Assembly: GCA_039801225.1 (NCBI GenBank)
Contig: JBDRUH010000002.1
Coordinates: forward strand, 285 to 64,284
DNA length: 64,000 nucleotides
Origin: a candidate division WOR-3 bacterium
GTDB taxonomy: Bacteria; Hydrothermota; Tepidihabitantia; Tepidihabitantales; Tepidihabitantaceae
Reading direction: 5' to 3'
The position numbers and the translations under genes are program-made. Positions 1 through 7,704 of this stretch are shown here, one piece after another. The notes beneath the pieces are model-generated. The model was not told where the DNA came from, searched no databases, and saw nothing but the letters and a program-made list of their open reading frames with translations. Every line of letters starts with the position of its first letter. Positions within the stretch are counted from its first letter, which is position 1.

Positions 1-58
1 TCTCGGAATTAGGGCAATTTGACTATATATTCTTTATTGTTAAACTAATCAACGAGAT

Positions 59-1363
59 ATGAAACCGATGGGGAAAATAATAATTTACACAGTTGCTCTA
101 TCTATTGCCCATTGGGCTTTTGGTGGGACCACTTATGTAAGTGGATTTCTCAAAAGGAATACAACCTGGGACTCCCGCGGCAGTCCATATGTAATAACCG
201 GAGATGTCTATGTGGATTCTGGGGTCAGTCTATATATTCTGCCCGGAGTGAAGGTTCTATTTACCGGTGGTAAGAAACTGGTGGCGAAAGGTATACTTAC
301 GGCTATCGGCTTTGAGTCTTGCCCGATTATTTTCACCGCTCTTGACACTCTTTCTCCTTGGGAACAACTCCGGTTCATTTCTCCGGTTTCCCCCTGCAGT
401 CTGAAATACTGTGAGGTCTCCTATGCCTGCAATTCAGCAATTAACAATTCAGGCTGGCTCTACATCGGCTACTCCACTCTCAGCAGAAATAGCGGCGTTT
501 TGGGTGGTGCGATATACAACAGTGGGACCGTGCTGATAATCAACAATACGATTACCCAAAATAGCGCTTCTTTTAAGGGCGGTGCCACCTGCAATGAGGG
601 GGGTGCATTTATAATTGGCAATACGATAACCCAGAATAGTGGTTACTGGGGTGGAGGTGTTTATACCAGTGGTGATATAAAATTAACCAACAACAAGATA
701 ACCGGGAATAAGGCGGGATATGGAGGAGGTATCTACATCTACAGCGGGAGCGCAACAATAACTTATAATACGATAACCGGGAATAAGGTTGATTACGGTG
801 GCGGCGGTATATTTAACTCCAAAGGAAGTGTTTCAGTAACTGACAATACAATTATTGACACCACCATATCCACGATATGGAACAATGCCTATATCTATCT
901 TTACCATAATAACCTCAATAACCTCCGATATTGGGGAAACACATTTTTCAACACTACTTCTGATGATGTTACTGCCAGATATAACTACTGGTTTACCCTT
1001 GATACCGAGGTAATCAACCAGAAGATTTACGACTACTGGGATGATTCTACCAAAGGCAAGGTCCTTTACCAGCCCTTCCTCACCGAACCGATAGGGATAG
1101 GTGAGGAAAAGATTCTTCCCTTCCGGGACAATAGTCATTCCATTCTCTCCCTCTATCCAATTCCGGGAAGGTCCTTTTTCCATATTTCCTTTCCACCCGA
1201 CATATACGATATTAAAATATATGACCCATCGGGAAGGATGATAAAAGAGCTCACCCCTTCCCATTTATCAAAGGAGTTGAAGATATCATTGAAGGGTTTC
1301 CGGTCAGGGGTCTACTTTCTAAAAACTAACAAAGGGGTAATAAAGTTCCAGGTGGTGAAATAG
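59..1363 (+). CDS. Secreted parallel beta-helix repeat protein with T9SS C-terminal sorting domain
   Basis: 434-aa ORF with a hydrophobic N-terminal signal-like segment (KIIIYTVALSIAHWAFG). It has about 10 tandem ~22-aa units of the form NNTITQNSA..GGA / NNKITGNKAGYGGGIY, typical of right-handed beta-helices. The last ~80 aa (LSLYPIPGRSFFHISF..IKIYDPSGRMIKEL..GVYFLKTNKGVIKFQVVK) fit the T9SS CTD pattern. Confidence 0.8.
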   Translation: MKPMGKIIIYTVALSIAHWAFGGTTYVSGFLKRNTTWDSRGSPYVITGDVYVDSGVSLYILPGVKVLFTGGKKLVAKGILTAIGFESCPIIFTALDTLSPWEQLRFISPVSPCSLKYCEVSYACNSAINNSGWLYIGYSTLSRNSGVLGGAIYNSGTVLIINNTITQNSASFKGGATCNEGGAFIIGNTITQNSGYWGGGVYTSGDIKLTNNKITGNKAGYGGGIYIYSGSATITYNTITGNKVDYGGGGIFNSKGSVSVTDNTIIDTTISTIWNNAYIYLYHNNLNNLRYWGNTFFNTTSDDVTARYNYWFTLDTEVINQKIYDYWDDSTKGKVLYQPFLTEPIGIGEEKILPFRDNSHSILSLYPIPGRSFFHISFPPDIYDIKIYDPSGRMIKELTPSHLSKELKISLKGFRSGVYFLKTNKGVIKFQVVK

Positions 1364-1602
1364 ATGATAAGCACACTAATTCCAATGAAACCCCGTCCCG
1401 ACAATTCAGCAGAAACCGGATAAACGCTACGCATCTCTGATATGTGCTTTGATATAGGTACAAATCCTCCTTTTTGTTTTAACTAATCCGACCGCTGATG
1501 GTGTTAAACCTCCTTTACCACCAGCACTTCTTCATTTGGCAAATATATTATCTTCATCTCGCTGAGGGCAAACCGGCTGAGTTTGAATGATGTTAAGGGT
1601 TC

Positions 1603-2226
1603 TCATAGATGGCAACAATGGTTCACCGCCCAGGATACTTGATGGGTTGGTTGGGAGTGCACACCCGGTCCAAAATTACACCAAAGGTAATCTATCAGCC
1701 ATTCCAGTTCCCCTCGGACTTTCTGGTTGTGGTGGACACAATAGCCGCGCCTCTGCTTGACAACTACTGGATATAGATGAGGATAGCGGCTCTTGTAATC
1801 AGCCGTGCCTTTTGCTCCCAGATAGCAGAAATCAGGGTATTCACTTAGAAGAACAGCACCGTGTTCAAAGTGAGGACCGACATCGTATTCTAAATCTTTC
1901 TGGGTATTGTGATTGGGAATATTATTTCTGTTTGCTCTCAAAGTAGCTCTACCGTTAACATCTTCATATATACAATCCAGTCTATAAGCGTATTTTGCAC
2001 CCCAGTAGGCATTCCCACACAATTTCTTGGTTACCTTTGCCACATAGATGAGTCTTGCGCCATCCCTATTGGAACTGAATCCTATTACATAGTCACCGCG
2101 CTCAGCCACCGACCGCAACGGCTTGGCACATAATGCAAGCGTCAGAATTTTGCCACCGGTTATACAAGGAGCAAGCCCCGTATCGGCTGTCATTTTGTAG
2201 AAATAAATATTGTTACGCGTTACCAT
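1603..2226 (-). CDS. Nmad2-like protein (putative nucleotide-modification-associated family), distal gene of a coupled pair
   Basis: 207-aa ORF whose ATG overlaps the upstream gene by 14 nt. Motifs are IYFYKMTADTGLAPC, LTLALCAKPLRSVAERGDYVIGFSS, RLIYVAKV, DCIYED and VLLSEYPDFCYLG. From memory these match the Nmad2 family pattern (y.Y.v..D.GfAPnP ... TLA.CKp.iR....GDwv.G). This is not verified by any search. Confidence 0.55.
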   Translation of the reverse strand: MVTRNNIYFYKMTADTGLAPCITGGKILTLALCAKPLRSVAERGDYVIGFSSNRDGARLIYVAKVTKKLCGNAYWGAKYAYRLDCIYEDVNGRATLRANRNNIPNHNTQKDLEYDVGPHFEHGAVLLSEYPDFCYLGAKGTADYKSRYPHLYPVVVKQRRGYCVHHNQKVRGELEWLIDYLWCNFGPGVHSQPTHQVSWAVNHCCHL

Positions 2227-2953
2227 CTAAGTTGTTCCTTTTTACCAGTTCGGGGGTTTGCCTGTTAAACCAGTGAAGAAACCGCTCCGGTTTTGTAAAA
2301 GCCGGTAAAACGGCGCTGCGTTGAATGTAGCCGTTATTAACACTGAGTCCACCCCATTCTTCAAGAATATCTGGGCAAACGCGATATGCCCTGTTCCTCC
2401 ACCCTCCAATTGGTATGCAGCGCCGCAATCTGCCAGAATATTGGTGTTGAGCCCGCACCACAATTTCATTTGCTTCGGGTAAGGGCTCTCGTCTGGTATG
2501 AGCATTTTTCCCCCAGTGCTCTTCGGGTATTTTTTCTGCCGGCACAATTTCATCAATAACAAAAAAGCCTATCAGAGCATACACCAGACCGTGATCTTTA
2601 GGATTTATTGATTTTAGCCCAGCATAAAAGGCTAAGAAATCTCCCCGGCTTAGTTGCATAATTTGACTGCCCTTTCTTCTCCCATCCCCATAGGTCAAAT
2701 GTTCAAAATCAGGGTCAAGATGCATATATCTATTTTCCAAATGATTTGGTAGAGCTACCTCTATTTTTCTCAATGCTGTAATGAGTTCCGTGTATTCATT
2801 ATACATTTGAGCATAACCTGATCTAAGCCTGCATTCATCTTGGGTATCTTCAGGCACTGGAACATATACAAACTCATTCGTATCCCGGTTGACAGGGCTA
2901 TTCCACTTTCCGTCCGTTATGTCAATACCTACTCGGACAAGCAAACCTGCCAT
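2213..2953 (-). CDS. Nmad3-like protein (putative nucleotide-modification-associated family), proximal gene of a coupled pair
   Basis: The track ORF starts at a GTG (2968), but an ATG at 2953 is preceded by AAAGGAG with 6-nt spacing. Motifs are LLVRVGIDITDGKWNSPV..EFVYVPVPE, HLDPDFEHLTYGD and GDFLAFYAGL..LVYALIGFFVIDEI. From memory these resemble the Nmad3 pattern. This is not verified. Confidence 0.55.
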   Translation of the reverse strand: MAGLLVRVGIDITDGKWNSPVNRDTNEFVYVPVPEDTQDECRLRSGYAQMYNEYTELITALRKIEVALPNHLENRYMHLDPDFEHLTYGDGRRKGSQIMQLSRGDFLAFYAGLKSINPKDHGLVYALIGFFVIDEIVPAEKIPEEHWGKNAHTRREPLPEANEIVVRAQHQYSGRLRRCIPIGGWRNRAYRVCPDILEEWGGLSVNNGYIQRSAVLPAFTKPERFLHWFNRQTPELVKRNNLDGNA

Positions 2954-3025
2954 ATTATCTCCTTTCACTAAGCGTGGTGGTTAAATTATTTATAGAACCT
3001 TTTATTAACATTTTTCATACAGGTT

Positions 3026-3053
3026 ATATTATGCCGACATAGGTTAAAGTCAA
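3026..3053 (-). promoter_or_regulatory. Sigma-70-type promoter for the Nmad-like cassette
   Basis: The minus strand reads TTGACT, a 16-nt spacer, then TAATAT, about 70 nt upstream of the ATG at 2953. The -35 element lies at the edge of a repeat shared with the TA module. Confidence 0.45.
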
Positions 3054-3243
3054 TGTATAATTCAAATACATCTGCGACATATTGGGTTTTTCCCCAGCAA
3101 ATAATTAGGAGAAATTCATAAATTATCCCTATGAAGGGATTGCTTCGCTAACGCTCGCAATGACAGCGGGTGATGACGGATGGCGATGGGGTCCCAACGA
3201 TAAAAATACAAAAAGCAGGCTAAAGCCTTGCCCGACATATAGC
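3049..3243. repeat. Composite intergenic repeat, copy 1 (promoter module + GATTGCTTCGC..CTCGCAATGAC motif + GCAGGCTAAAGCCTTGCCCGAC hairpin)
   Basis: This copy aligns block by block with 4072..4195, and copy 1 carries two extra insertions (about 3101-3133 and 3161-3202). The 3049..3098 block also recurs at 49508..49558. Confidence 0.8.
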
Positions 3244-3450
3244 CACGAATTTTACTGAAGACCCGGCGAATTTCCCCATCAAACCTCGGTATTGCCAATT
3301 TCGTATAGATATCTTAAATTTTTAGAGGGCAAGGAATTTGAAGCCCCTTAGGCAATTTTGCCTTTTTGGCATAATGATGTTGCCGCCGCAATAAGAAAAT
3401 TATATAAGGGGCGGAATGTTATTTAACCCTTTTCAGCGGTGTGGGATTGA

Positions 3451-3807
3451 TTAGCCACCGCGGACCCGCAACTGGTTTTCATCAACAACCCAGAGCCGGT
3501 TAGTTAATGGCTCACGCCCGAAGTGGGTAATAATTCGTTTGAGCAGGTTGATAACAGTTTCCTTATCCTGCCGGTTGGCACGCAAGATAATAATCCCTGG
3601 AGATTCCCGTGGAGGATAGGCAAGGATGTTGGCATAACCAAGGTCAAGTGTTATGAGAATTCGCCCTTCGCTCTGGCATTGATTGTAAAGGGTTGCATCA
3701 CTCACACCAACAAGATTTTGCTCTTTTACCGTTTGAGTATCGTAGCCAGCCAAACTCAAGAGTTGAGCCGACTCTTGCGGTAGGTTTTCGTCAATTTTGA
3801 ACTTCAC
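3451..3807 (-). CDS. DUF5615-type PIN-like (Mut7-C-like) putative toxin
   Basis: 118-aa ORF starting MKFKIDENLP...ITLDLGYANI..GIIILR, which is the DUF5615 pattern. It lies 13 nt downstream of a DUF433 gene, the classic pairing. Confidence 0.7.
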   Translation of the reverse strand: MKFKIDENLPQESAQLLSLAGYDTQTVKEQNLVGVSDATLYNQCQSEGRILITLDLGYANILAYPPRESPGIIILRANRQDKETVINLLKRIITHFGREPLTNRLWVVDENQLRVRGG

Positions 3808-3820
3808 CGGTCAGTTGATT

Positions 3821-4195
<375 letters not shown>

Positions 4196-4255
4196 GGGAT
4201 TTTGGATAAGTTTTGACTTATGCTCCATTGTAATATAATTCATATCGTCCTTGAT

Positions 4256-5425
4256 ATGAAGAAGTTTGTATTATTATTTCTTCCGCCCTTTTTATTGTTG
4301 TATCCCCAGCCCTTTCAGCACAGGATTCTTATCGCCACCTCAACCGATGGTCTTAATTTTGTCCGGCAGAACATTATCGCGGTTGATTCCGGGGATGTGC
4401 CCGATGCGGTCGTTGGTCCTGATTCTGAGGTCTATTTATATTTTCAGGGATTATGGACCCATACCACCGACGGCATTATGCTCGGTAAATCGCCGGATGG
4501 ATTTAATAACTGGCAGTTCTATCAGGTTCATATCCCGGGAACAGAAAGTTGGCCCGGCAAACCCTGTGACCCGGATATTATCCTGAGAAATGACACATTC
4601 CGATTGTATTTTACTGGTGACCCGTATAATGACCGGCAGCCGGAAACTTATTCGGCAATCTCGCTTGATGGAATAAATTTCACCCTGGAATCGGGAGTGC
4701 GGTTTGCAGTTTCTAAGAGCGCGGTACTTGACCCGAGTCTGTTATGGACCGGTGATACCCTGCAGTATTTTGCCGGCGGTGCACCACCATTCTATAACTG
4801 GCATGCCCATTCCTATGACGGAATAAACTTTATTCAACAGCCCAATTATTTTGCCGAGAGCCTGATGCTCGCCAACGGTATCAAGTTAGCCAATGGCTAT
4901 CGGTTCTTCGGTTTCAGAAATTTGCCGCCGTGTGGAATTCGTTCGCTATACTCCCCGGATGGAGAAAACTGGACGGTTGAACCGGGCTATCGGCTAAAAC
5001 TTGACACCACCAGCAGACTGGAAAGCCTTATTGTCAAGGACCCGGCAGTTGTCTATAAGGATAGCATCTTCATTATGTATTATGTAACAAGAAAACCCCT
5101 CAGCGGTATTGAAGAAAATGGGCTTTTAAAAGATGATAAAATAGATTTGGAAATTTTCCCCAATCCCTGCCGGAATGGGCTGGGAATAGGCTTGAACTCA
5201 GGATATATCAGGGGAAAGAAGGGGCTTTTTAGAATCTCAATAAAGATTTTTGACATTACGGGTTCGCCTGTCCGGAAATGGGAGAATATTTTGGTAAGTG
5301 AACGGGAGAAAATCTTCTGGTATGGTGATAATGAATTGGGCGTGCCGGTCAATCCGGGTATTTATTTTGTCTGTTTTGAAGATAATCTGATAAGAAAAAG
5401 AATAAAGGTAATATTGATTGAATAA
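4256..5425 (+). CDS. Secreted five-bladed beta-propeller (GH43/32-like fold) protein with T9SS C-terminal domain
   Basis: A signal peptide starts at MKKFVLLFLPPFLLL (ATG 4256, whereas the track ORF begins at 4220). Blade motifs recur (S.DG.NF/W, then DP..v). The C-terminus LEIFPNPCRNGL..IKIFDITGSPVRKW..GIYFVCFEDNLIRKRIKVILIE is T9SS-CTD-like. Confidence 0.7.
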   Translation: MKKFVLLFLPPFLLLYPQPFQHRILIATSTDGLNFVRQNIIAVDSGDVPDAVVGPDSEVYLYFQGLWTHTTDGIMLGKSPDGFNNWQFYQVHIPGTESWPGKPCDPDIILRNDTFRLYFTGDPYNDRQPETYSAISLDGINFTLESGVRFAVSKSAVLDPSLLWTGDTLQYFAGGAPPFYNWHAHSYDGINFIQQPNYFAESLMLANGIKLANGYRFFGFRNLPPCGIRSLYSPDGENWTVEPGYRLKLDTTSRLESLIVKDPAVVYKDSIFIMYYVTRKPLSGIEENGLLKDDKIDLEIFPNPCRNGLGIGLNSGYIRGKKGLFRISIKIFDITGSPVRKWENILVSEREKIFWYGDNELGVPVNPGIYFVCFEDNLIRKRIKVILIE

Positions 5426-5905
5426 ACTTAGGATTAAAAAGCCCTGCCAATTCTGAAAAGGTCTTCCAAAAGAATGAATGGTTGGATGTTAACAAAGGAA
5501 AATGGGCGTTTTGGTGGTTCTTTCAGTTAAGTCTCAGTTTTTTGATGACTTATTAAACTGACCGCCATAAAGTCCGCCACCCCGGTAGTGCTCCACTCCA
5601 CCACCTCCTCTCCTGCCCCGTTTTTCGCTGTTTTTATTGAGTCGGTTGATGGTTTTGGCTTTTCTTCTCTCTTTAAAGTGGTAAAAGTACCGTTTTTAGC
5701 ACTGCTGCTGGCTTTTTATGTAATGATAAGTTTAAATTTGATGGTGATTAGTTATTGAATTACAGTTGCCCGATCGCAGTTAAACCCGGTTTTTGGGTTT
5801 TCAGTTGGACTTTGGTTAAGAGAGACTTCTAAAAACCGACTTCAGATTGATGGTGGATTCAACAGGGTTAAATCTCGGGCTTTTTGTTTTTTATTTTGTA
5901 AAATG

Positions 5906-5933
5906 TTGACGAGTATGTTTATGCCGGTATCAT
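5906..5933 (+). promoter_or_regulatory. Candidate promoter of the tRNA-tuf operon
   Basis: TTGACG, a 16-nt spacer, then TATCAT, ending 14 nt before the first tRNA. Confidence 0.4.
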
Positions 5934-5947
5934 ATCCCACCGGTTCT

Positions 5948-6020
5948 GCCGACATAGCTCAGCCGGTAGAGCAGAGGTTTTGTAAACCTCAGGTCGGGGG
6001 TTCGACTCCCTCTGTCGGCT
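5948..6020 (+). tRNA. tRNA-Thr (anticodon TGT)
   Basis: A cloverleaf folds by hand: acceptor GCCGACA/TGTCGGC, anticodon loop TTTGTAA, T-loop TTCGACT. Confidence 0.9.
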
Positions 6021-6030
6021 TGAGTTTGAC

Positions 6031-6113
6031 GGACGGGTTCCCGAGTGGTTAAAGGGGGCAGACTGTAAATCTGCTGGCGAACGCCTACGGAGGTTCGAAT
6101 CCTTCCCCGTCCA
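6031..6113 (+). tRNA. tRNA-Tyr (anticodon GTA)
   Basis: Acceptor GGACGGG/CCCGTCC, anticodon loop CTGTAAA, a long variable arm and T-loop TTCGAAT. Confidence 0.9.
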
Positions 6114-6151
6114 TTTAATTTCAGTAATAGCGCCGACTGGTAAACGGAAAA

Positions 6152-6222
6152 GCGGGCGTGGTGTAGCGGTAGCACAACAGCCTTCCAAGCTGTTTGCGTG
6201 GGTTCAATTCCCATCGCCCGCT
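6152..6222 (+). tRNA. tRNA-Gly (anticodon TCC)
   Basis: Acceptor GCGGGCG/CGCCCGC, anticodon loop CTTCCAA and T-loop TTCAATT. Confidence 0.9.
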
Positions 6223-6245
6223 GAAATTTGAAACTAAGGAGATTG

Positions 6246-6274
6246 TTGACAGGGGAATAATTTTAATTTATAAT
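6246..6274 (+). promoter_or_regulatory. Perfect-consensus sigma-70 promoter internal to the tRNA cluster
   Basis: TTGACA, a 17-nt spacer, then TATAAT, ending 18 nt upstream of tRNA-Thr(GGT). Confidence 0.55.
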
Positions 6275-6292
6275 ACTAGAACGCTAAAATTT

Positions 6293-6365
<73 letters not shown>

Positions 6366-6501
6366 GAGGTTTTATGATTATTGGACTTTTAGATCGCCAT
6401 CCGCTCTCCGTCCGAGAAGGCGAGGTATACTTAATCGCCTCTCTAATTAAGTAAAAAAACGGAGTCGGCGGATAAAGGAGTGAATTAAAGGAGGAATGTA
6501 A

Positions 6502-7704
6502 ATGGCAAAGGCAAAATTTGAACGAACAAAGCCGCATGTTAATGTCGGAACCATCGGTCATGTTGACCACGGTAAAACCTGTTTAACTTCGGCTATTACT
6601 AAGGTGTTATCAAAAAAGGGTCTCGCCACCTATATGACCTATGACCAGGTGGCAAAGGCAAGTGAGGCTCATGGTCGTAGAGACGAAACGAAGATTCTCA
6701 CTATTGCGGTATCGCATGTAGAATACCAGAGTGAGAAAAGGCATTATGCCCATATTGACTGCCCAGGACACGCCGACTATATCAAGAATATGATTACCGG
6801 CGCTGCCCAGATGGATGGCGCAATTCTGGTCGTTTCCGCGGCCGATGGACCAATGCCGCAGACCACCGAACATGTGTTACTGGCACGCCAGGTGAATGTG
6901 CCGGCAATTGTCGTGTATCTGAATAAAATTGACCTGGTGGAGGACCCGGACCTGATTGAACTGGTAGAGGAGGAAATCAGAGATATTCTTAACAAATACG
7001 AGTTTCCCGGCGATAAGACACCAATTATTCGGGGTAGCGCCTTGAAGGCACTGCAGGAGGAGTCCGGACCTAATGTGGACTCAATCTGGGAGCTGATTAA
7101 GGCGCTGGATGAGTTCATTCCCGAACCGGTTCGGGATATTGATAAGCCGTTTCTTATGCCCATTGAGGATATCTTCTCCATTACCGGGCGCGGCACGGTT
7201 GTAACCGGTAGGGTGGAACGGGGAATTCTGAAACCGGGCAGCGAGGTGGAAATCGTTGGCTTCGGCAAGCACGATAAGGTGGTGGTAACCAGTATTGAGA
7301 TGTTTCGTAAGGTTCTGGATGACGCCCGAGCCGGTGACAATGTCGGGCTCTTATTGCGCGGCGTTGGTAAGGAGGAGGTGGAAAGAGGTATGGTCGTTGC
7401 CGCCCCTGGTTCTATCAGACCCTATAAGAAGTTTAAGGCCGAAGTTTATGTCCTCACTAAGGAGGAGGGTGGACGCCATACGCCGTTCTTCCCTGGCTAT
7501 CGTCCGCAGTTTTATATCCGGACCACCGATGTTACCGGAACCGTGCAGTTGCCCCAGGGTGTGGAGATGGTGATGCCCGGCGACCATGTTACAATGGAGA
7601 TTGAGTTGATCACCCCGGTAGCGCTGGAGCAAAATTCTAAGTTCGCCATCCGCGAGGGCGGCAGAACTGTCGGCGCCGGAACAGTCGTAGAAATAATTGA
7701 GTGA
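6502..7704 (+). CDS. tuf: Elongation factor Tu
   Basis: 400 aa with [16 protein letters not shown] and NKID G-motifs. AAGGAGG lies upstream of the ATG. Confidence 0.98.

Follow-up and report, generated by a model that had tools for sequence, protein, structure and literature searches.

Two overlapping minus-strand genes of the Nmad3 and Nmad2 families form a cassette in a 64,000-nt stretch of a candidate division WOR-3 bacterium (contig JBDRUH010000002.1, positions 285-64,284; "the window" below means this whole stretch). We think there is roughly an even chance (a probability of about 0.5) that the two proteins of this cassette form a functional unit which moves horizontally, recognizes a base or nucleotide and serves in defense against phages or other mobile elements. 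Across the homologous loci that we compared, the pair is patchy, horizontally distributed, and frequent inside type I restriction-modification (R-M) loci and other defense islands. Nmad3 is the constant hub of this arrangement and has a minimum of three exchangeable, faster-evolving partners (Nmad2, B1 and B3).

Family membership and distribution

The initial annotation had named both families correctly: the promoter-proximal product matches Pfam Nmad3 (PF18754; E=1.6e-24, 87.3 bits against a cut-off of 27, residues 5-181 on model positions 4-191 of 247) and the distal product matches Pfam Nmad2 (PF18753; E=5.3e-17, 62.4 bits against a cut-off of 26.1, residues 5-194 on model positions 2-194 of 200), with scores far above the cut-offs. 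The peptide motifs quoted at the time are all present in the two translations, and an NCBIfam scan of both proteins gave no match. The Nmad families reportedly go back to Iyer et al., in Nucleic Acids Research (NAR) in 2013. In the literature searched, Nmad2 and Nmad3 appear in no relevant paper apart from the DefensePredictor supplements discussed below. A WOR-3 metagenome-assembled genome (MAG) encodes the same two proteins at 100% identity, as ABIK39_00385 (Nmad3) and ABIK39_00380 (Nmad2), and the closest non-self relatives, at 56% identity for Nmad3 and 60% for Nmad2, come from other phyla.

Both proteins are well conserved at the positions that define their families. The window Nmad3 keeps all 35 invariant columns of alignment A1 (27 sequences), including H78-x-D80-P-D82-F, T87-Y-G-D90, D105 and A151-H-T-R154, and retains the motifs HLDPDF..LTYGD, GD..F, NAHTRR and R..YR; its invariant polar set comprises R7, D11, W17, H78, D80, D82, Y88, D90, D105, H152, T153, R154, R186, Y190, R191 and R212. 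The window Nmad2 keeps the 14 invariant columns of alignment A3, with Y10, D15, G17, P20, C33, D45, G49, Y74, D84, Y87, D115, Y135 and G137 retained. At nt 1738-1743 (Nmad2 residues 162-163) the window reads G-Y-C where relatives read G-[H/Y]-[R/K]; in an alignment of 40 sequences no other has this Cys, whose codon is one nucleotide change from Arg. Cys163 could be a functional variant, a sign that this copy is decaying or an error in the MAG consensus.

The window-type Nmad3 subfamily is small. An exhaustive hidden Markov model (HMM) search of 1.84 billion cluster representatives gave 1,106 matches at E≤1e-3, and tightening the cut-off to E≤1e-30 left 194; a pattern scan found it in 282 of 185,579 species-representative genomes, spread over Verrucomicrobiota, Acidobacteriota, Planctomycetota, Chloroflexota, Myxococcota, Nitrospirota, the candidate phyla radiation (CPR) and two archaeal classes. 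Viruses carry hardly any members of either family: the two window proteins had no tblastn match in 50,697 phage genomes, 2.9 million viral contigs held window-type Nmad3 on 1 and Nmad2 relatives on 19, and PHROG gave a single weak match. Plasmids carry solely distant solo Nmad3 genes.

Association of Nmad3 with Nmad2

We looked at the pair from both sides. The Nmad3-side sample of 83 loci is made up of 80 from genomes, two from metagenomes and the one in the window, and the Nmad2-side sample holds 80 metagenome loci from a broad Nmad2 profile, where many loci without an Nmad3 flank are contig ends. Co-localization of the homologs, which had been set beforehand as the test of the pairing, is strong in both: Nmad2 is the immediate same-strand neighbor in 24/83 Nmad3 loci, lying downstream of Nmad3 except in L012, and Nmad3 as recognized by Pfam makes up 46/104 of the genes that flank Nmad2, where the order is mostly Nmad2 then Nmad3. 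Junctions between the two genes are tight in homologous loci, ranging from -4 to +10 nt.

The suggestion that the two proteins form a hetero-complex is supported by natural fusions in either order. L165 encodes a 499-aa protein in which Nmad2 (16-205, E=3.7e-57) is followed by Nmad3 (221-482, E=1.6e-67), P0261 is a 493-aa fusion of a divergent Nmad2 and then Nmad3, and P0276 is a 501-aa fusion with Nmad3 in front of Nmad2. Pairwise distances of Nmad3 and Nmad2 are also correlated across 23 loci (Mantel r=0.54, p=2e-4), and divergence is much faster in Nmad2 than in Nmad3. Adjacency, tight junctions, fusions and correlated distances thus support the idea that Nmad3 and Nmad2 work together physically, and we infer that they act as a complex or on one substrate.

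Nmad3 as a hub with exchangeable partners

The place of Nmad2 downstream of Nmad3 is taken in 27 loci by a second family, B1 (210-230 aa; for example L007 4142-4768 and L057 6061-6702), with the motifs DPFWEFGSFGCTGCH..NLL, LAFAQGG and MPFRY (alignment A4). B1 has no Pfam, PHROG or Protein Data Bank (PDB) match, and hhalign detects no relationship to Nmad2 (probability 0.8%). At least nine proteins have B1 joined to the C-terminal end of Nmad3, those of L029, L039, L048, L054, L169, P0246, P0249, P0282 and P0338. In nine loci the gene beside Nmad3, either same-strand or convergent, belongs to another family, B3 (~158 aa; L014 6725-7201, L036 6712-7209 and L021 6798-7289), and B3 makes up residues 244-384 of P0241, a fusion with Nmad3. 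B3 carries the motif TLVYKRTHxGDPD..GRFG..DCMG..IGVGG and has no Pfam match. About 19 Nmad3 loci are without a recognizable partner, including those of a Chloroflexi clade in which Nmad3 lies beside rlmN or trpD.

Partners differ even between closely similar hubs. The Nmad3 proteins of L010 and L011 are 91% identical, and their Nmad2 partners are just 25% identical; the Nmad3 of L007 is 85-86% identical to both, yet its partner is B1. Similarly, Nmad3 is 90-92% identical between L081, where the partner is Nmad2, and L076 and L049, where it is B1. Judged by these identities, partner exchange on Nmad3 is recent. A constant component combined with a rapidly replaced one is the design of many immune systems, and we know of no earlier description of a hub-and-partner architecture for Nmad3.

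In L189 (9001-11734), the end of pyrD is overlapped by 4 nt by Nmad3, and downstream comes a run of three overlapping genes without family assignment, which encode 190, 277 and 203 aa. The 190-aa protein has no match to Nmad2, B1 or B3, and its gene may represent a fourth type of Nmad3 partner.

Genomic context of the homologs

Type I R-M genes were recognized as sequence clusters equated with the subunits of that system, with Pfam confirmation in L084 and L196. A type I R-M-like gene lies ≤5 kb away in 16/80 genome loci, and at least two subunit types are present in 10; we estimate that 16/80 (20%) is a large enrichment, with no formal background computed. The loci checked share a layout of hsdM-hsdS, variable cargo including Nmad3 and its partner, and then hsdR (Pfam-confirmed in the same two loci), and this hsd-embedded layout is also found on metagenome contigs that bear the closest relatives of the window Nmad2.

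What travels with the pair as cargo includes a 663-aa reverse-transcriptase-like protein and DUF1016/YhcG in L084 (3924-5915), OLD-family ATPase-TOPRIM proteins in L062 (4083-5846) and L011, AbiEii in L041, and a Ser/Thr kinase with TPR repeats together with an integrase in L196 (3776-7901). The hsdS-hsdR cargo also contains a PEP-utilizing-domain protein, and some cargo proteins have no assigned system. In L060 (110-2164), an LmuB-like ATPase lies directly upstream of Nmad3, with no R-M genes detected on that 6.2-kb contig. Neighbors in L001 and L002 are an SLFN-type helicase, CHAT, McrBC and HepT/MNT, and those in L195 are an HD-domain (dGTPase-like) protein, MazE and WYL. On the basis of this genomic context we hold a defense role of the pair with moderate confidence.

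Predicted folds

AlphaFold2 gave confident models of Nmad3 (predicted local distance difference test, pLDDT, 92.2; predicted template modeling score, pTM, 0.91) and of Nmad2, which was modeled on an alignment of P-series proteins (pLDDT 87.2, pTM 0.85). The top Foldseek matches of both models are nearly all EVE, YTH or ASCH domains, that is, PUA-like, and all are sub-threshold. Nmad3 matches best the archaeal McrB N-domain with 5-methylcytosine (m5C) DNA (6p0g; E=7e-3, probability 0.87), followed by MJECL36, PH1033, the TRIP4 ASCH domain, the THYN1 EVE domain, the YTH domains of Mmi1 and YTHDF2, and VcaM4I; its viral matches are ASCH, EVE and DUF3850 proteins. For Nmad2 the best match is the Mmi1 YTH domain (E=5e-3, probability 0.89), and further matches are Leishmania 2ar1, ZmASCH, THYN1 with 5mC DNA, 2eve, the McrB N-domain and VcaM4I, with ZmASCH (5guq) reaching the highest TM-scores of the Nmad2 matches listed (0.42 / 0.55). 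One Joint Genome Institute (JGI) annotation independently labels a homolog 'NMAD domain/EVE domain-containing'. Both proteins contain a motif GD[FY]hh(F/G) followed by hhYAhhG, which we take to be the core EVE/ASCH signature. With no Pfam EVE or ASCH match and sub-threshold Foldseek matches, a PUA-like fold is consistent with the data and not significant.

The two proteins had also been proposed to be distant paralogs. Paralogy cannot be claimed at the sequence level, because hhalign of Nmad3 against Nmad2 is not significant (probability 5%) and aligns only the stretch with the common GD motif; what stands of the proposal is this shared motif and the sub-threshold Foldseek matches of both models in the same PUA-like superfamily. 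Nmad3 and Nmad2 are probably highly divergent PUA-like domains with extra elements, and would be paralogs at the superfamily level only. Characterized PUA-like members take a flipped-out, usually modified DNA or RNA base into an aromatic pocket, and some are enzymes. Because the predicted folds are probably PUA-like, we infer with moderate confidence that Nmad3 and Nmad2 recognize a base or nucleotide. Their invariant polar residues have the look of an enzyme's active site or of a site that holds a ligand with high affinity, and less that of a passive reader; the His/Asp/Arg set of Nmad3 and the Asp/Cys/Tyr set of Nmad2 would point to catalysis or tight ligand binding.

Comparison with known systems

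The cassette is a true member of the Pfam Nmad3 and Nmad2 families and lies outside DS-4, the modification-dependent type IV restriction enzymes and all PADLOC systems. Its nearest counterparts are the standalone EVE and ASCH proteins whose occurrence inside type I R-M loci and defense islands is a described pattern (Bell et al. 2020, PMC7641849). Those are small standalone PUA-like proteins, often two kinds together, in hsdM/hsdS/hsdR operons, with predicted binding of modified bases. Nmad2 and Nmad3 differ from them in escaping the EVE/ASCH sequence models, in their length (207 and 246 aa as against ~145 aa), and in having extra strands and helices, their own invariant His/Asp/Cys/Arg sets and mutual fusions.

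Type IV enzymes with a PUA-like sensor, such as VcaM4I (EVE-HNH), the archaeal McrB N-domain and SRA/EVE-nuclease fusions (PMC7897488, PMC6765204), are among the best structural neighbors of both models (6p0g, 6yex) and have the defense-island habitat in common with the pair. Unlike them, the cassette has no HNH, PD-(D/E)xK, GIY-YIG or GTPase module in or beside it, and no nuclease or McrBC-type motor was found in either protein or in the adjacent window genes. Since no known nuclease module is present, any cleavage must use a new active site. A PUA-like barrel can itself be a catalytic scaffold, as in ASCH enzymes such as the Zymomonas mobilis ASCH ribonuclease (5guq), to which Nmad2 and Nmad3 show no sequence similarity and from which they differ in their conserved residues.

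The initial annotation knew of no established activity for either family. This is still true biochemically, but Nmad2 is now one gene of DS-4 ('NTTI'), an E. coli defense system that DefensePredictor (Science 2026, PMC13092281) validated experimentally. Its genes encode a thymidylate-synthase homolog, a deoxynucleoside monophosphate (dNMP) kinase, a 5-hydroxymethyldeoxyuridine (5-hmdU) DNA kinase, a TIR protein (ThsB-like) and Nmad2 (PMC13092281). The same paper lists more predicted NMAD-containing systems, with the function of NMAD given as unknown and these domains not experimentally validated; Nmad3 was not found in the available part of its supplements. Like the window gene, the Nmad2 gene of DS-4 overlaps the gene before it, and the window Nmad2 is 35% identical to it over the N-terminal 83 residues (E=5e-10). 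Nmad2 also adjoins MazG/MazG_C in L147 and L156, and given the DS-4 and MazG/MazG_C settings it can be seen as a module reused with several nucleotide-centered partners.

Locus L012 (Opitutaceae, 1-6696) is a hybrid of the validated DS-4/NTTI and the Nmad3 pair. On one strand it carries TIR (4896-5366), Nmad2 (5299-5985; 48% identical to DS-4 Nmad2) and Nmad3 (5989-6696), with a 5-hmdU DNA kinase homolog 4 kb off. By joining the TIR-Nmad2 core to Nmad3, L012 ties Nmad3 to the DS-4 type of system.

Layout of the cassette in the window

The features of the cassette are the following.

2213..2953, minus strand: Nmad3-family gene, promoter-proximal, 246 aa from ATG 2953 (Pfam PF18754)
1603..2226, minus strand: Nmad2-family gene, distal, 207 aa (Pfam PF18753)
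2213..2226, minus strand: 14-nt overlap of the two genes (Nmad3 stop TAA 2215-2213; Nmad2 start ATG 2226-2224)
2959..2963, minus strand: Shine-Dalgarno-like AGGAG, with a 5-nt spacer (ATAAT) ahead of ATG 2953
3026..3053, minus strand: promoter-like TTGACT-16-TAATAT, a candidate only (9/12 matches)
3051..3252, strand not given: upstream leader repeat, of which a second copy (4079-4195) precedes the toxin-antitoxin (TA) operon

Of what had been proposed for this layout, the 14-nt overlap of the two minus-strand genes was confirmed directly in the sequence. A single translationally coupled operon is consistent with it and with the tight junctions of the homologs, and coupling of Nmad3 and Nmad2 through the overlap would fit the sequence. 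Open reading frame calling prolongs the Nmad3 gene to an in-frame GTG at 2968; we take ATG 2953 as its start because the N-termini of homologs read 'M.GLLVRVGID'. The AGGAG (2963-2959) and this ATG are real, but the spacer between them is 5 nt and not 6 nt as first given. The promoter held up less well: TTGACT-16-TAATAT is present at 3053-3026, but promoter-like sites in the region (8) are not above chance expectation (6.2 +/- 2.9 in shuffles), so that we regard it as a plausible candidate and not as evidence. An Rfam scan of the cassette and the leader repeat gave no RNA element.

The neighboring elements that had been described are real as well: a TA module adjoins the cassette, repeats (families D1, D2 and D4) flank it, and a tRNA cluster (5948-6365), with tuf at 6502, lies ~3 kb away. 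No anomaly of GC content or composition was found at the cassette. The neighbors of Nmad2 in the window are Nmad3, the TA pair and secreted proteins. The defense or accessory context claimed for the cassette is a mixed case, well supported in the homologs by type I R-M embedding but weak in the window, where the TA module is all there is.

The TA pair itself consists of a DUF433 gene (80 aa, 3821-4063) and a DUF5615/PIN-like gene (118 aa, 3451-3807), which occupy the minus strand (3451-4063) directly upstream of the cassette. A DUF433/DUF5615 pair also adjoins Nmad3-Nmad2 in Verrucomicrobiota L064 (5068-5789), in divergent orientation. We considered the pair as part of the system and rejected it as a probable coincidence, because its orientation in L064 differs and it is absent at the other loci.

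A direct repeat of ~120-200 nt, in three blocks (3051-3252 and 4079-4195), brackets the TA module and occurs in two copies only in 64 kb. A repeat search showed blocks D1, D2 and D4 to be 90-100% identical between copies, and one 25-mer of the leader repeat has exactly two occurrences in 64 kb against 0 expected. Each copy stops exactly at a -35 hexamer, TTGACT 3053 for Nmad3-Nmad2 and TTGACA 4076 for the TA operon, and copy B (4079-4195) includes a terminator-like hairpin at 4160-4137 on the minus strand. The repeat has the appearance of a cassette boundary or a promoter leader that was duplicated, and its pattern suggests that the cassette and the TA module were assembled by one process or are under common regulation. 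The products of the large flanking genes at 59-1363 and 4220-5425 match Por_Secre_tail, a C-terminal sorting domain of type IX secretion, with the match of the latter below the Pfam threshold; such proteins fit a WOR-3 origin, related to the Fibrobacterota-Chlorobiota-Bacteroidota (FCB) group.

Weighing the explanations

In the defense role, which from the genomic context we hold to be the most likely one, Nmad3 and Nmad2 would recognize a base or nucleotide that is typical of an invader's nucleic acid, for instance a hypermodified pyrimidine or the precursor of one. Processing might then mean base excision, cleavage of the strand or hydrolysis of the nucleotide, or recognition might instead trigger an effector, and the partner module (Nmad2, B1 or B3) would set specificity or output. 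Our confidence in the chemistry (excision, cleavage, hydrolysis or signaling), and in which protein is sensor and which is actor, is low.

Several results weigh against this picture. Recent partner swapping speaks against a tightly co-evolved, specific interface. Some settings are those of ordinary genes, namely pyrD in L189, the solo Nmad3 among glutamine-metabolism genes (glnE) in L191, the solo Nmad3 genes beside rlmN or trpD in Chloroflexi, and the window itself. Neither protein has a match in PADLOC-DB v2 at E≤1, and in the window Nmad2, C163 occupies a position where a near-invariant R/K sits in 39/40 relatives. On the structural side, Foldseek against PDB and BFVD gave no match at E≤1e-3 for either model, the best matches having E-values of 5e-3 to 7e-3, probabilities of 0.87-0.89 and TM-scores of 0.3-0.55; Pfam EVE, ASCH, YTH and PUA are absent from both proteins at E≤1, searching PDB sequences with the Nmad2, Nmad3 and B1 profiles brought up no meaningful match, and neither protein contains a recognizable nuclease, glycosylase or nucleoside triphosphatase (NTPase) domain. 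Finally, DS-4 is a system of five genes without Nmad3, of which the window has Nmad2 alone and none of the other four, and the effect of DS-4 on lambda, in one row of the supplement, is a ~1-log drop in efficiency of plating (EOP) (PMC13092281).

The pair might instead be a 'writer' that modifies bases of the cell's own DNA or RNA, for example to add an extra self-mark alongside a neighboring R-M system, which we consider unlikely. One might expect this from the family name and the original comparative-genomics prediction, and from the company that Nmad2 keeps with a 5-hmdU DNA kinase, a thymidylate-synthase homolog, a dNMP kinase, MazG/MazG_C and several methyltransferases; a place between hsdS and hsdR would suit a modification accessory too. 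However, Pfam shows no cofactor-binding domain for S-adenosylmethionine (SAM), ATP, pyridoxal phosphate (PLP) or radical SAM in either protein, the window cassette is without precursor-making enzymes, and characterized PUA-like domains are readers or hydrolases, not group-transferases. Base-hypermodification pathways usually have their home in phages, where both families are nearly absent (0/50,697 genomes by tblastn; 1 Nmad3 and 19 Nmad2 among 2.9 million viral contigs).

It is quite improbable, in our view, that the proteins are a housekeeping or stress enzyme for nucleoside or RNA repair or salvage, such as an ASCH-type amidohydrolase that removes a nucleoside or tRNA adduct, unrelated to phage conflict. 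In favor of such an enzyme, the ASCH-like structural matches include the enzyme ZmASCH, the window copy lies 3 kb from the tRNA-tuf operon, and solo Nmad3 genes stand beside rlmN and trpD or, in L189, overlap pyrD by 4 nt. But the scattered phyletic pattern (merely 282/185,579 species representatives), closest relatives at 56-60% identity in other phyla, a partner gene swapped among 90%-identical Nmad3 genes, and the repeated finding of the pair within operons for type I R-M as well as next to integrases and transposases are hard to square with it. We give little credence to the idea of a TA or abortive-infection pair made up of a toxic protein and a second one that keeps it neutralized until infection. 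Although the two small overlapping genes lie beside another TA module in both the window and L064, AbiE and MazE genes are found among the neighbors, and a TA-like nature has been suggested for EVE/ASCH proteins close to type I R-M (PMC7641849), solo Nmad3 and solo Nmad2 genes occur in many genomes and single-chain fusions, unusual for a toxin and its antitoxin, recur. The existence of solo genes and fusions contradicts an obligate TA pairing, and the replacement of the partner by unrelated families with Nmad3 unchanged argues against it too.

Implications

Both Pfam families, their 'nucleotide-modification' flavor and the flagging of the NMAD domain for defense were already known. Not found in the literature searched were the Nmad3-centered modular architecture, the B1 and B3 families, the PUA-like assignment and the type I R-M embedding. 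We would tentatively go one step further and speculate that Nmad3 is the core of an unrecognized, widespread but rare modular immune family, in which a PUA-like enzyme with swappable partners (Nmad2, B1, B3 and perhaps others such as the 190-aa product in L189) performs new chemistry on a modified phage base or nucleotide. Nmad3 and its partner could then act as a glycosylase or nuclease with an EVE/ASCH-type scaffold, or sense the precursors of hypermodified nucleotides, and the partner would pick the phage modification.

Phage DNA is shielded by many base modifications, and few host countermeasures are understood. If the modular immune reading is true, the pair would give cells a novel means of sensing or destroying nucleic acid that carries modifications, and reagents specific for a modification might be developed from it. 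Should the pair turn out to be a writer of modifications or to repair nucleosides, its conserved His/Asp and Asp/Cys pockets would still stand for new enzyme classes on a PUA-like scaffold. The associations described here give a first functional handle on Nmad2 and Nmad3, two Pfam families without known biochemistry, and identify B1 and B3 as partners that have no Pfam family.

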